Source: Candidatus Bathyarchaeia archaeon (GTDB taxonomy: Archaea; Thermoproteota; Bathyarchaeia; Bathyarchaeales; Bathycorpusculaceae). Taken from it: a DNA stretch of 64,000 bases. Location: the NCBI GenBank assembly GCA_049516875.1, contig JBEKSS010000002.1, forward strand, positions 128,001 through 192,000, in the 5' to 3' direction. The position numbers and the translations under genes are program-made. How positions within the stretch are numbered: position 1 is the stretch's first letter; each line of letters opens with the position of its first letter. The notes under the pieces were generated by a model. That model saw nothing but the letters and a program-made list of their open reading frames with translations, was not told the origin of the DNA and made no database searches. This document shows, one piece after another, positions 4,723 through 58,523 of the stretch.

Positions 4723-4830
4723 GCCCTGGTAGTATAGTCCGGTCTAGTATATGCGGCTGTCGCCCGCAGGACATCACTGAGAAAAACACTCTGTGACATG
4801 AGCCGGGTCCAAATCCCGGCCAGGGCGCCA
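4723..4830 (+). tRNA. tRNA-Asp(GUC) with 30-nt non-canonical intron (4773-4802, position 48/49), CCA encoded
   Basis: Acceptor GCCCTGG/CCAGGGC, anticodon arm TGCGG-CTGTCGC-CCGCA, T arm CCGGG-TCCAAAT-CCCGG; BHB-like fold around the insertion. Confidence 0.9.
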
Positions 4831-40287: not shown

Positions 40288-40830
40288 CTACATGTAAATG
40301 TAGAGTATGTTTCTTTTGAGCAATGTGAAGATCACGGCTACGCTGATGATGAATTCAGGGACAAGATAGGTTGCATTGTATGCTGCTGAATAGGCAAACA
40401 CGTTCCAGCCTGCCCATGCGTATTGTCCAAAGAAAATGACACCTGACACAAAATGACAGAGGAATCGGCCGAGAACTCCAACTCCTACTCCGAATACGGG
40501 ACGGCTCTGGAATGCTCCGGCAAGACCTAAGGCTCCGAAAGCCAGTGGATAGTCGAGGATTACCTGTGTTGGATAGTATATATCGCCAGAAATAACCATG
40601 TGAACCAGTCCGTAAACCACTCCGGCTTCAACTCCCCATCGAGGCCCTCTTCTCAGTGCAAACCATATGAGCGGAACCATGCTTCCGATAGTTATGCTCC
40701 CGCCTTCAGGCAGGTGAAAGAAGGGAAGATAGAATTTGCTTATGATATAAAGCGCGTTTGCAAGTGCAATGAAGACAATGGCTTCAGCCAGAATTTTGGT
40801 ATCAGCTGTTCTCTTCGCAATTTTTTCCAT
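40288..40830 (-). CDS. thiT: ECF-type thiamine transporter ThiT
   Basis: LPEGGSIT, ALRRG, QVILDYPLAF, HFVSGVIFF, YSAAYN; preceded by TPP riboswitch. Confidence 0.92.
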   Translation of the reverse strand: MEKIAKRTADTKILAEAIVFIALANALYIISKFYLPFFHLPEGGSITIGSMVPLIWFALRRGPRWGVEAGVVYGLVHMVISGDIYYPTQVILDYPLAFGALGLAGAFQSRPVFGVGVGVLGRFLCHFVSGVIFFGQYAWAGWNVFAYSAAYNATYLVPEFIISVAVIFTLLKRNILYIYM

Positions 40831-40833
40831 ATT

Positions 40834-40925
40834 CTTTCCCTCCGCCAGCATTATCTGGGTCAGGTTCTATGGGTCGACGGTGCTCAACCGTCCTCTCAGC
40901 CGGGTCACGTGCCCAGCTCCCCTAA
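40834..40925 (-). ncRNA. TPP riboswitch
   Basis: Minus strand GGGGAGCTGG...CTGAGAGG...GACCC ATAGAACCTGA CCCAG ATAATG CTGG CGGAGGGAAAG matches the THI-box consensus, immediately upstream of thiT. Confidence 0.92.
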
Positions 40926-41009
40926 ACCTAGAGGACAATTGTTATTTATCGGTATATTTAACTTTCCTAGACACAGTCCAGAAGTCACGTTAGGATGTTG
41001 TCATAAAGC

Positions 41010-48440: not shown

Positions 48441-48536
48441 GGGCCCGTAGCTCAGTAAGGACAGAGCACCGGGCTTTTAAGCGAAGAGCTTCGCGTGGAG
48501 ACCCGGGGGTCCCGGGTTCAATTCCCGGCGGGCCCG
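48441..48536 (+). tRNA. tRNA-Lys(UUU) with 21-nt canonical intron (48480-48500, 37/38); CCA not encoded
   Basis: GGGCCCG/CGGGCCC acceptor, CCGGG-CTTTTA[intron]A-CCCGG, CCGGG-TTCAATT-CCCGG; intron hairpin GCGAAG/CTTCGC. Confidence 0.93.
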
Positions 48537-54385: not shown

Positions 54386-55393
54386 ATGCGTTTGCCAAAC
54401 CCATTGGTTATTGTTCTCTTTTTAACATCACTATTATCTCTGAGCCTGTCAAGTTGCGTGGCGTTCGCAGCTCCTATCCTGCAAATCAAGATAACCGTGG
54501 GTCGCTCCTCCAGCACTCTTGGCTTCCTCGGGAACCAGGTTTACAGTGTTGGGGAAGGGATAAGTGTTTGTGCAAACATTACGTTGGACGGAAGCTCAGC
54601 GGCCAATCTGGCGGCAATCGAGCTAGATTCTCCCTACGGCAACCCTTACCTCATTAGGACGATCAAGACCGGAAACGTTTCAAGAATGTATTTCCGCGTG
54701 CAATTCGTGGACCTGTATACGTGCGATCAGCTTGGAAATCCCATGACCCTTTTCAACCCTGGCAGCACTGTCTACGTCAACATTACAATAAAAAACATAG
54801 ATGTAGTCCAGCACAACGTAAGAGTTGGGTTGTATGCACAGTGCTCTGATAACACGCCAACGTACGCGTATTACCCCGAAGGATTCACCATAATCCCTGG
54901 AGTACCACAACCATTTCTCGTGCAATTTACATTACCGGGCAATGCTCCATCAGGTCAGGCTATGGTTTTCGCTAGCCTATTCACCGATTATCCCGCGAAC
55001 CTCGGGTACCCGTACTGTCCGGAACAAGCCGCGAACTTTTCAATCCGAGCATCGACACCTGCAATGCCTCAGCAGCCCGACTACAACAACATGACGTTCA
55101 GCCTGCCGAGGAAAAATGTGAAGCTCGGAAACTATACCGTTCACGCGGTCACAAACTTCAACGCGGTCCAAACGGCAACCGACATTAAACAGTTCACGGT
55201 CATATTGCTGGGCGACATCAACAAAGACTACGTCATAAACATGAAAGACATTGCAATGTGCGTCCAGTTCTTCAACACCACGCCAAATTCTCCAAACTGG
55301 AACCCGGACGCAGACGTCAACAAAGACGGTGTCGTCAACATGAAAGACATAGCCTTGCTCGTATCCTTCTTCCAAAACAACGCAATCCCATGA
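54386..55393 (+). CDS. secreted protein with C-terminal dockerin-like domain
   Basis: Signal peptide; duplicated Ca-binding repeats GDINKDYVINMKDI / ADVNKDGVVNMKDI. Confidence 0.88.
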   Translation: MRLPNPLVIVLFLTSLLSLSLSSCVAFAAPILQIKITVGRSSSTLGFLGNQVYSVGEGISVCANITLDGSSAANLAAIELDSPYGNPYLIRTIKTGNVSRMYFRVQFVDLYTCDQLGNPMTLFNPGSTVYVNITIKNIDVVQHNVRVGLYAQCSDNTPTYAYYPEGFTIIPGVPQPFLVQFTLPGNAPSGQAMVFASLFTDYPANLGYPYCPEQAANFSIRASTPAMPQQPDYNNMTFSLPRKNVKLGNYTVHAVTNFNAVQTATDIKQFTVILLGDINKDYVINMKDIAMCVQFFNTTPNSPNWNPDADVNKDGVVNMKDIALLVSFFQNNAIP

Positions 55394-56802: not shown

Positions 56803-57183
56803 TTGTCTTTCCAAGAATGGCTTTACCGAAAGGCTGAGCAGAACGCTCACAGCGAAATCCTAGCCTTTTTAATGATGATTCTGGGCATGAATCTTTTAAT
56901 GGGAGGCCTCATCCTGACCGTCATCACAGCTGGCGGGCCAAACCTGCTTTTCTACGTTACACAACAACCCCTAACTCAGTCTGCGGTTCTAGGGCTTGTC
57001 CTGACCATAACGGGCTTCTTGATCCTTTCAGCCAGTTTCGTGCTCGTTGTTCACTATGACAGGCAAAGGTCTTGGCATCTGAAAGAAATAGAAAAATCTA
57101 CTAGGCTCAGAAACAAGAAAGTTACCATCAAGACAGCAGATGAACTCCTTAAGGAATTGGCTGACGAAAACAGAGAGAAATAA
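56803..57183 (+). CDS. two-TM hypothetical membrane protein
   Basis: 126-aa ORF, two TM helices, charged tail. Confidence 0.75.
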   Translation: MSFQEWLYRKAEQNAHSEILAFLMMILGMNLLMGGLILTVITAGGPNLLFYVTQQPLTQSAVLGLVLTITGFLILSASFVLVVHYDRQRSWHLKEIEKSTRLRNKKVTIKTADELLKELADENREK

Positions 57184-57236
57184 CCAACAAGAAAGAGAAA
57201 CACATAAATTCAGTTTTCCCATTCTAAAAACTCGGC

Positions 57237-57450
57237 CGGGCGGTAGCTCAGCTTGGTAGAGCTTCCGAGCCAGCACAAAGTAAGATTGGCTGACGGAGAT
57301 GCTGTAGATGCCTACCCATGGTGGGCATCACCCAGCCTACCAGGCTAACATGCAGAAACCGGAGTGTCGCAGGAGGGTTGGAGTTTGTCCTTCAGCCCGG
57401 CGAATTCAAAATGAAGGTTTCGCTTCATGAAAGTCCTGCCCGCCCGACCA
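57237..57450 (+). tRNA. tRNA-Tyr(GUA) with four introns: 57268-57300 (30/31), 57308-57357 (37/38), 57374-57404 (53/54), 57411-57433 (59/60); CCA encoded
   Basis: Spliced 77 nt: CGGGCGG TA GCTC AGCTTGGTA GAGC T TCCGG CTGTAGA CCGGA GTGTC GCAGG TTCAAAT CCTGC CCGCCCG A CCA; C1-G72 and A73 are archaeal Tyr identity elements. Confidence 0.9.
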
Positions 57451-57521
57451 TCAACTGTAATGCACGCAGAACATGGCAAGCGCGCGGATCAAGTCAGCGC
57501 ATGATTTGCAAGAGAGGCGGT

Positions 57522-58523
57522 TCAGACGTGTCTTGCTTTACGTTTGATTGCTACAAAGGCAAGAATCGCTGTAAGAACTGCCAGGTGGTAAGGTGCTAGC
57601 AGATCTACTTTTGCATTTCCTTTCATTGAGATTGAGAAGCCTCCCACAGGAACAGAGAACGTCACCTGAAAAGTTATAGTGTCCCATGCAGTTACTCCAG
57701 CAATGTCAACAGTCGAAATACCACTCCACGTTCCAACGGTGGCTGCATCGGTGGGTATTATGAAACTTGTCGTCGCCAAGCCATTTTGATTCGTTGTGGT
57801 CGTTCTTACAACGATAATTTCGCCAACTGGGTTTTCAACCTGAAAAGCCACGAGTTTTTTCTGCACTGGATTACCGTTGTATGTCACATTGGAAATCAAG
57901 TCTACTTCTTCTCCAACCGTGAAGCTTCCACCTGGCTGACCTGGGCCTTTTCCACCTCTTTGCGTGTAGACGTCTAATAGTCCCTCTGAAGGAGGGTCAG
58001 GTTCCATCGATTTCCAGAAGTAGACGGCGCCAACACTATCGTGAGCGATAGGAACGAGTCCTGAATCCAAGAGCAACGTCTGCCCAAGTTCTAGGGGACT
58101 ATCCAGACGCGAGCTTGAACCATTTACTACTTCAAAGGTTATTAGTGCCAGCGATCCGTTCCCGCTCACTGGGTTCACTGAGCTAGAAAGTGAACAGTTG
58201 ACTTCGACTAGACCTAGAGATGTGTTGTTGTCAAACTTGAAGCACGACTTCGGTGGGGTTGCAAAGAATGATCCTTGAGAAACTTGGGCAACATTCAGAA
58301 GAGAAGCGTCGTAGGCGACAGTGAACTGATAACTCCGCAAGTTTTCGACGTTGTTCACGTCGATTGCAATATTGAAAAGCTCTCCTTCCTTTTGTGCAAC
58401 GTACATTGATGGAGTTATGAAAAGACATGTTCTGGAGCCTATCGCATTAGACTTAGGGACAATTGCCAGAAATAGCGCACTAGTGCACAAAAGTAACGCA
58501 ACTGAGTTGGAAATAGCCCTCAA
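57522..58523 (-). CDS. cohesin-domain surface protein with C-terminal PVGG motif and TM anchor
   Basis: Signal peptide, F.IAIDV.NV.NL..YQF.V.YD..LL...G.F, GNGSLA.ITF cohesin pattern; PVGG then TM and basic tail. Confidence 0.85.
   Translation of the reverse strand: MRAISNSVALLLCTSALFLAIVPKSNAIGSRTCLFITPSMYVAQKEGELFNIAIDVNNVENLRSYQFTVAYDASLLNVAQVSQGSFFATPPKSCFKFDNNTSLGLVEVNCSLSSSVNPVSGNGSLALITFEVVNGSSSRLDSPLELGQTLLLDSGLVPIAHDSVGAVYFWKSMEPDPPSEGLLDVYTQRGGKGPGQPGGSFTVGEEVDLISNVTYNGNPVQKKLVAFQVENPVGEIIVVRTTTTNQNGLATTSFIIPTDAATVGTWSGISTVDIAGVTAWDTITFQVTFSVPVGGFSISMKGNAKVDLLAPYHLAVLTAILAFVAIKRKARHV

Follow-up and report, generated by a model that had tools for sequence, protein, structure and literature searches.

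Archaeal tRNA genes can carry more than one intron, and the paper describing tRNAscan-SE 2.0 gives an upper number of three introns per gene. The multi-intron tRNA genes of the Thermoproteales (Pyrobaculum, Thermofilum, Caldivirga), for which likewise up to three introns are reported, are processed by a two-subunit EndA, and their neighbouring introns must sometimes be removed sequentially. In Asgard archaea, a 2024 paper (PMC11291895) includes a table of 228 introns, and an October 2026 preprint reports a maximum of five intervening sequences within a single tRNA gene; many of these introns are non-canonical, they lie at BHB-compatible sites and are in many cases missed by the standard annotator. 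A tRNA gene of the nucleus of C. merolae holds three introns, placed in the D-arm, at position 37/38 and in the T-loop, and their ordered processing was shown by RT-PCR of intermediates. The intron of eukaryotic tRNA-Tyr, also at 37/38, unusually conserved and required for function, has been tied in two papers to intron-dependent modification, namely Psi35 (PMC2651775) and m1A58 (PMC12168002). The literature searched contained no report of tRNA introns in Bathyarchaeia, nor of four-intron tRNA genes beyond the Asgard preprint.

The locus described here is a tRNA-Tyr(GUA) gene with four introns, carried by a 2.43-Mb, 20-contig MAG (97.5% complete, 5.4% estimated contamination) of a mesophilic, uncultured peat lineage of Bathyarchaeia. 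It lies in a 64-kb stretch of DNA that was analysed as a whole (the window), and coordinates without a prefix refer to that window; the host genome is designated G000 and other genomes, loci and families by similar handles. The gene resembles those of the Thermoproteales in that its genome encodes a two-subunit EndA, and in the likelihood of some sequential removal, but has four introns where up to three are reported there, and belongs to a mesophilic peat lineage. As in Asgard archaea, non-canonical introns at BHB-compatible sites escape common gene finders, but the phylum is a different one, and whereas most Asgard tRNA genes are interrupted, 16 of the 37 resolved tRNA genes are interrupted here and only tRNA-Tyr has more than two introns. 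C. merolae, finally, provides a comparable combination of sites and of ordered processing in a eukaryotic nuclear gene with three introns and with experimental support. Four introns exceed the number in the tRNAscan-SE 2.0 paper, so that the mention, in an earlier note on this DNA, of three introns as the classic extreme agrees with that paper but not with the five intervening sequences of the Asgard preprint, after which more than three introns are no longer unprecedented.

The gene occupies 214 nt of the forward strand (57237-57450), and yields a perfect 77-nt tRNA-Tyr(GUA) once four blocks of 33, 50, 31 and 23 nt, at tRNA positions 30/31, 37/38, 53/54 and 59/60, are removed and the remaining exons of 31, 7, 16, 6 and 17 nt are joined in silico. 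Exon 1 (57237..57267, +) supplies tRNA positions 1-30, that is, the 5' strand of the acceptor stem, the D-arm and the start of the anticodon stem, and is followed by the 33-nt intron 1 (57268..57300, +) at 30/31. The 7-nt exon 2, GCTGTAG (57301..57307, +), covers positions 31-37 with the anticodon GUA and precedes the 50-nt intron 2 (57308..57357, +) at the canonical site 37/38. Exon 3 (57358..57373, +; 16 nt, positions 38-53) is separated by the 31-nt intron 3 (57374..57404, +) from the 6-nt exon 4, TTCAAA (57405..57410, +), which holds T-loop positions 54-59, and the 23-nt intron 4 (57411..57433, +) separates this from the 17-nt exon 5 (57434..57450, +) with positions 60-73 and an encoded CCA. 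The length of exon 4 is exactly that of one 4-nt strand of the central helix of intron 4 together with two of its bulge nucleotides; exons of 6 and 7 nt thus mark, or lie just above, the minimum size able to hold these elements. The layout proposed in the earlier note, with all its coordinates, lengths and insertion points, proved correct on re-reading. ARAGORN calls the spliced 77-mer as tRNA-Tyr(gta), with a perfect cloverleaf in which all four stems are perfect. Archaeal/eukaryal-type tRNA-Tyr is identified by the anticodon GUA, a C1-G72 first pair and the discriminator A73, and the spliced molecule has all three, together with the encoded CCA. About 30 nt 5' of tRNA position 1, a candidate TATA-like box, ATAAATT (57204..57210, +), could be read directly, and a TAT likewise lies some 30 nt upstream of tRNA-Tyr in orthologues; the element is possibly an archaeal promoter. 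The gene is flanked by coding sequences for a dockerin-domain protein (54386-55393, +) and a cohesin-domain protein (57522-58523, -), with Pfam E values of 9e-11 and 1.4e-10, respectively, a cellulosome-like pair in an archaeon.

In the archaeal BHB motif, a 4-bp central helix lies between two 3-nt bulges and cleavage follows the second bulge nucleotide. The four exon bases that precede the last two were compared with intron bases -6 to -3; with the register taken from the mature tRNA, pairing occurs at 15 of the 16 central-helix positions (binomial P 4.2e-6 at p = 0.375). All four pairs form in intron 1 (CTTC/GGAG), intron 2 (CTGT/GCAG) and intron 4 (TTCA/TGAA), and three of four in intron 3 (CGCA/GGCG), where the exception is an A.G mismatch involving A51. 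The inner helices comprise five of six pairs in intron 1, 9 bp in intron 3, which has no outer helix, and 5 bp in intron 4, whose central and inner helices in the primary transcript we take to be the relaxed HBh' form. In intron 2, which is without an inner helix, the anticodon stem serves as outer helix and amounts to 1 bp in the primary transcript and to 6 bp once intron 1 is gone. In the case of intron 4, the outer helix is the T stem, which goes from 0 bp before to 5 bp after the removal of intron 3. Each intron can thus be given a flanking helix, introns 1, 3 and 4 by way of the inner helix and intron 2 by way of the outer helix after the removal of intron 1. The helices named in the earlier note were found as described there, with the qualification that GCCAGC/GCTGAC, the inner helix of intron 1, is present but not fully paired, owing to one C.A mismatch.

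In ViennaRNA predictions, the mean pair probability of the central helices is 0.00-0.05 when all four introns are in place, and it does not exceed 0.5 in any of the 15 combinations of present and absent introns. The segments CCTTCA of intron 3 and TGAAGG of intron 4 are mutually complementary (57389-57395 with 57412-57417), and when the full precursor is folded in silico, the pairing between the two introns competes with the hairpin of intron 4 itself. Self-splicing introns of group I or II were considered for the four blocks and set aside, as the window contains no match to an Rfam intron family and the blocks measure just 23-50 nt.

Orthologous genes were sought in 40 relatives with the locus as BLAST query, and subsequent spliced alignment gave 33 interpretable genes, one from G000 and the others from 31 of the 40 relatives, one of which has two copies. 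The nine remaining relatives are without a usable gene, G002 having only a truncated 5' part. Introns always occupy the same four sites in all 33 genes, but their number ranges from four (four genes) through three (three genes) and two (22 genes) to one (four genes), the two-intron genes carrying introns 1 and 2 and the one-intron genes intron 2 alone. The genes with four introns are those of G000, of G001 in the same genus, and of G034 and G035, which belong to other families. Every orthologue recovered from the order contains intron 2, and nearly all contain intron 1. Across the 32 orthologous genes, 68-77 of the 77-78 exon positions are identical to G000, with ten genes fully identical, and exon 2 (GCTGTAG) is invariant in 33 of 33; the introns are 47-100% identical to those of G000. 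Central helices are nevertheless kept, with four of four pairs in 28/28 genes for intron 1, 33/33 for intron 2 and 7/7 for intron 4, and in intron 3 with three of four pairs in 4/5 genes and all four in the fifth. The inner helices covary, double changes being numerous. Inner pairs of intron 1 covary (G-C/A-T, C-G/T-A and A-T/G-C/T-A), inner pairs 1-9 of intron 3 are paired in all five orthologues with compensatory changes at pairs 2, 4, 5, 7 and 8, and the substitutions in the T stem of L014, L022 and L024 are compensatory. The absence of an inner helix from intron 2 is also general, with 0 bp in 29 of the 33 genes; this intron contains a 9-bp hairpin with a 3-nt loop (hairpin 1, 57308..57328, +, from an RNAalifold consensus), for which 94.9% of cells are paired and two-sided changes occur at six of the nine pairs.

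Two loci among the relatives stand apart from this series. G014 has two two-intron tRNA-Tyr genes, L006 and L021, on different contigs, of which the second is identical to G000 at 68 of 77 exon positions. The locus L027 of the same-genus genome G002 (G002:C1:210775-210868) consists of exon 1, intron 1, exon 2 and the start of intron 2, followed by unrelated sequence, and no match to the missing 3' exon at up to two mismatches was found in this 97%-complete assembly; L027 may represent a truncated gene, a split one or a break in the assembly.

The class as a whole was surveyed in 401 sampled Bathyarchaeia genomes with a search pattern of exact exons that demanded an insert at 53/54 as well as at 59/60, and that matched in 16 genomes. 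Besides G000 itself these are 2 of 103 genomes in its own family f1, 9 of 25 in f11, 2 of 18 in f7, 1 of 1 in f12 and 1 of 2 in f5, and all five families belong to the order of G000. The sampled genomes of other orders gave no pattern match, a result from which exon differences could hide some genes. Ten of the eleven further loci examined have all four introns, so that the four-intron tRNA-Tyr gene occurs in 14 genomes, whereas G003 and G004, of the same genus as G000, are without introns 3 and 4. Although introns 1-3 of the genes in G001, G167, G238, G416, G273 and G403 (families f1, f7 and f11) are 59-90% identical, their 23-nt intron 4 is 96-100% identical. Gains and losses of introns 3 and 4 were judged from this distribution, and the patchiness speaks for repeated loss and/or lateral spread. 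Both the patchy occurrence of introns 3 and 4 across the order and the near-identity of intron 4 in three families are new here. A 21-nt look-alike of intron 4 at G000:C7:166192 forms a hairpin before an ORF, is not part of a tRNA and was taken as a chance resemblance.

ARAGORN finds no gene at the unspliced locus and none in the whole window, and the Rfam tRNA model gives no match at the locus, either at gathering score or at E <= 0.001 genome-wide, in keeping with the expectation that standard annotation would miss this gene, at least as regards these two finders. In intron mode, ARAGORN mis-calls several intron-bearing genes of the genome, and its 40 genome-wide calls include no tRNA-Tyr; neither does any of the 37 Rfam genome hits read as Tyr. 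A BHB-aware finder, with confirmation by ARAGORN, resolved 37 tRNA genes, among them one for Tyr: 21 are without intron, 12 have one, three have two, and tRNA-Tyr has four. This finder covered 1994 of 4613 seeds together with 684 of 863 GC-filtered seeds, and many multi-intron solutions that lacked ARAGORN confirmation were dropped, which makes the census of multi-intron genes a lower bound; about nine Rfam or ARAGORN tRNA hits lie outside the resolved set, and none of them reads as Tyr. The pattern of exon 5, the 3' exon, has a single match in the genome at up to two mismatches. By all four approaches, then, no other tRNA-Tyr gene was found.

Other structured RNAs were seen in passing. Within the window, tRNA-Lys(UUU) (48441-48536, +) has one 21-nt intron and is found by Rfam but missed by ARAGORN without intron mode, while tRNA-Asp(GUC) (4723-4826, +; G000:C2:132723-132826), with a 30-nt non-canonical intron in the variable/T-arm region, is absent from the Rfam gathering-score scan of the window. 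Elsewhere in the genome, tRNA-Trp(CCA) (G000:C12:36091-36263, -) has a 100-nt intron at the canonical site. A TPP riboswitch match of 64 bits lies at 40820-40933 (-) of the window, in this archaeal genome.

The enzymes that such a gene would need are encoded in the host genome. The EndA gene is 78-96% identical to genes in Candidatus Bathyarchaeia / Bathyarchaeota records, and a pair of EndA paralogues, 185 and 183 aa long, each contain PF01974 and PF02778 (N- and C-terminal domains). The 185-aa protein is nearest to crenarchaeal catalytic subunits (2cv8, E 1.3e-42; also 3p1z_B, 3ajv_B and 2zyz_B), aligns end to end with 2cv8 and retains the His-containing motif 'GVEHAPY'. In the 183-aa protein, a Thr is aligned to the catalytic His of domain 2 of 5x89 ('REHSKY' against 'KDTAKY'). 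One subunit with the catalytic residues Tyr, His and Lys and one without the catalytic His would be the composition of the alpha2beta2 two-subunit type, to which the pair can be assigned from these alignments, and which corresponds to the broad-specificity endonuclease that had been postulated for this gene. A review links the two-subunit EndA to non-canonical and multiple introns and to the acceptance of relaxed motifs. The genome also encodes RtcB (PF01139, 598.7 bits).

The anatomy, conservation and covariation of the locus, and the presence of these enzymes, are best read as those of a functional and probably sole tRNA-Tyr(GUA) gene, whose four BHB introns would be spliced by two-subunit EndA and RtcB, a reading to which we assign a probability of about 0.9. 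The same conclusion, of a single functional tRNA-Tyr gene with four BHB-type introns, had been drawn in the earlier note, and is supported by in-silico splicing, motifs and orthologues. Transcription, cleavage and order of splicing are projected here from the sequence, the sequencing runs listed for the locus being of DNA, with no RNA run among them. Transcription would give a precursor no shorter than 214 nt, in which the alpha2beta2-type EndA would recognise the four BHB motifs and cut after the second nucleotide of each 3-nt bulge; the five exons would then be joined by RtcB, the CCA being already encoded.

Some properties of the locus might instead suit a decaying pseudogene or a disused tRNA-like relic. 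Standard finders fail on it, two of its motifs are imperfect (three of four central pairs in intron 3, the C.A mismatch in the inner helix of intron 1), the related locus of G002 is truncated, and a decayed back half of such a gene does exist in G021 as the relic L032 (G021:C1:96713-96776, minus), in which the last part of intron 3 is followed by TTCAAA, by an intron 4 of 22 nt and by a mutated T stem plus acceptor-CCA. The gene in G000, however, is the only tRNA-Tyr found in its genome, and its exons are perfect and near-identical across the order while the introns diverge with compensatory changes. Conserved exons, kept central helices and covarying inner helices together rule out pseudogene or chance, and we regard decay as very improbable. 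An assembly artefact, in which fragments of several strains were joined into a chimera, would find an echo in the sediment run X5, where the locus is spread over many short contigs broken at the conserved exons. Against it, 57100-57600 is covered with 0 differences by single contigs (2.9-4.4 kb) of three DNA runs, from which the MAG itself may have been assembled, so that the locus is contiguous where a mis-assembly had been named as a possible refutation; the same five-exon layout recurs in 13 other genomes, and a fourth, independent run, from sediment, contains a variant that has introns 3 and 4. A chimeric origin is accordingly next to negligible. For the functional four-intron gene, two further matters concern the order in which the introns leave and the source of introns 3 and 4.

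The earlier note held that the order of splicing is obligatory, intron 1 preceding intron 2 and intron 3 preceding intron 4, through competition for nucleotides or missing outer helices. The pairing of intron 2 described above speaks for this, as does its extension to the orthologues, in which the outer helix of intron 2 measures 1-2 bp before and 5-6 bp after the removal of intron 1 in 28/28 genes with intron 1, and 6 bp from the start in 5/5 genes without it; moreover, the 2-bp outer helix of intron 1 (G24-C32, A23-U33) overlaps the central helix of intron 2. The T stem does become the outer helix of intron 4 only upon the loss of intron 3, and close introns may need sequential removal according to the tRNAscan-SE 2.0 paper, ordered processing having been shown for the three-intron tRNA of C. 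merolae. But introns 1, 3 and 4 have central and inner helices already in the primary transcript, relaxed motifs of a kind that, by the review, two-subunit EndA accepts; in particular, the claim that intron 4 requires the prior removal of intron 3 fails, as its full central helix and 5-bp inner helix coexist with intron 3, and the late T stem does not force an order. The ViennaRNA probability of the central helix of intron 3 is 0.50 without intron 4 against 0.03, which, if meaningful, points in the opposite direction. Furthermore, G028 and G033 have intron 4 without intron 3, and G038 has introns 2-4 without intron 1, combinations which indicate that no intron depends on another for its existence. 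A strictly obligatory order is therefore unlikely. Introns 1, 3 and 4 would present the relaxed HBh' motif from the outset, with no order forced for 3 and 4, and since intron 2 has no inner helix and gains its outer helix only after intron 1 has left, intron 1 is likely to be removed preferentially ahead of intron 2, although not obligatorily so. As to origin, introns 3 and 4 may have been acquired laterally, together with a replacement back half of the gene, by way of a homing-endonuclease cassette. Such an event would fit the rarity of the pattern in f1 against its frequency in f11, the absence of both introns from same-genus G003 and G004, and the near-identity of intron 4 over three families compared with introns 1-3; a LAGLIDADG_3 ORF (L129:1558-1977, -; E 2.5e-6) abuts, in antisense, the CCA end of the four-intron gene of G273, and the relic L032, which immediately follows the stop codon of an ORF and lies 37.7 kb downstream from the gene with two introns that works in G021, could be the displaced old back half. 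Yet G000 has no adjacent endonuclease gene, a cohesin-domain gene lying 72 nt downstream, nor is there one beside tRNA-Tyr in G001, G167, G238 and G416; no unusual similarity is seen in intron 3 or in the downstream flank, and the 37.7 kb between gene and relic in G021 consist of ordinary metabolic genes with no integrase. Residence of this relic in an integrated element was rejected, since no PF00589 occurs between G021:C1 96.7 and 134.4 kb, where the ORFs are metabolic and the GC even. We consider lateral acquisition by a cassette possible but somewhat doubtful.

Intron 2 of the four-intron gene, which accounts for the likely preference in splicing order, contains a further conserved element. 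Its core, AGCCTACCAGGC (57334..57345, +), is antisense to the D-arm, pairing at 12 positions with the D-loop and the 3' strand of the D-stem (tRNA positions 15-26, 57251..57263, +, with A23 bulged). Over the 33 genes, 96.9% of 385 cells are paired, and when the partner strand is slid the pairing falls to 10-59%. The D-arm partner has just two variable exon positions, nt 17 and nt 20, and both covary with the core: nt 17 and its partner form U-A in 19 genes, C-G in 10, U-G in 2 and other combinations in 2, and nt 20 and its partner U-A in 18, C-G in 7, U-G in 4 and others in 4. Double-change cells number 17 (10 at nt 17 and 7 at nt 20) against 8.0 +/- 1.9 in shuffles, a count reached in 0/500, although relatedness among the sequences can inflate the significance of these covariation tests. 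Ten further four-intron genes have Watson-Crick pairs at both positions and exhibit all four exon combinations. The predicted duplex energy of -21.0 kcal/mol was reached by 0/200 shuffles, and among the 22 introns of the genome tested for antisense to the D-arm, the 21 others gave nothing comparable. The core/D-arm pairing is thus supported, though not proven, by comparison of sequences, and its covariation is a new detail here; the eukaryotic tRNA-Tyr intron is not known to contain an element antisense to the D-arm. The core sequence recurs in the 5' strand of hairpin 1 (GCCTACC), which makes two alternative pairings possible. In guide-RNA introns of the tRNA-Trp type, an antisense element is flanked by box C (RUGAUGA) and box D (CUGA). 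Intron 2 was considered as a box C/D guide and rejected, as neither box occurs in its 50 nt and no snoRNA family reaches gathering score in the window.

The core/D-arm pairing crosses the BHB pairing of intron 2, from whose central helix the core is separated by a linker of 1-5 nt. Since this linker looks too short to accommodate both structures, the D-arm pairing and the BHB fold are probably exclusive. Intron 2 might accordingly be a conserved cis-acting element through which the precursor switches between a held and a spliceable form, a proposal that we put forward tentatively and think more apt to be wrong than right. Such a switch could set the moment at which intron 2 is taken out, as compared with the excision of the other introns or with a modification of tRNA-Tyr that depends on the intron. 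The covarying pairing of core and D-arm, if real, would offer a testable case in which an archaeal tRNA intron plays a structural part in the precursor that contains it.

The gene is a well-documented new case among the few tRNA genes that carry more than three introns, none of which is reported for Bathyarchaeia in the literature searched. Genomes of this kind are left without a tRNA-Tyr call by ARAGORN and the Rfam tRNA model. The orthologue series, in which the same exons are interrupted by one to four introns at fixed sites, amounts to a natural experiment on the loss, gain and spread of introns.
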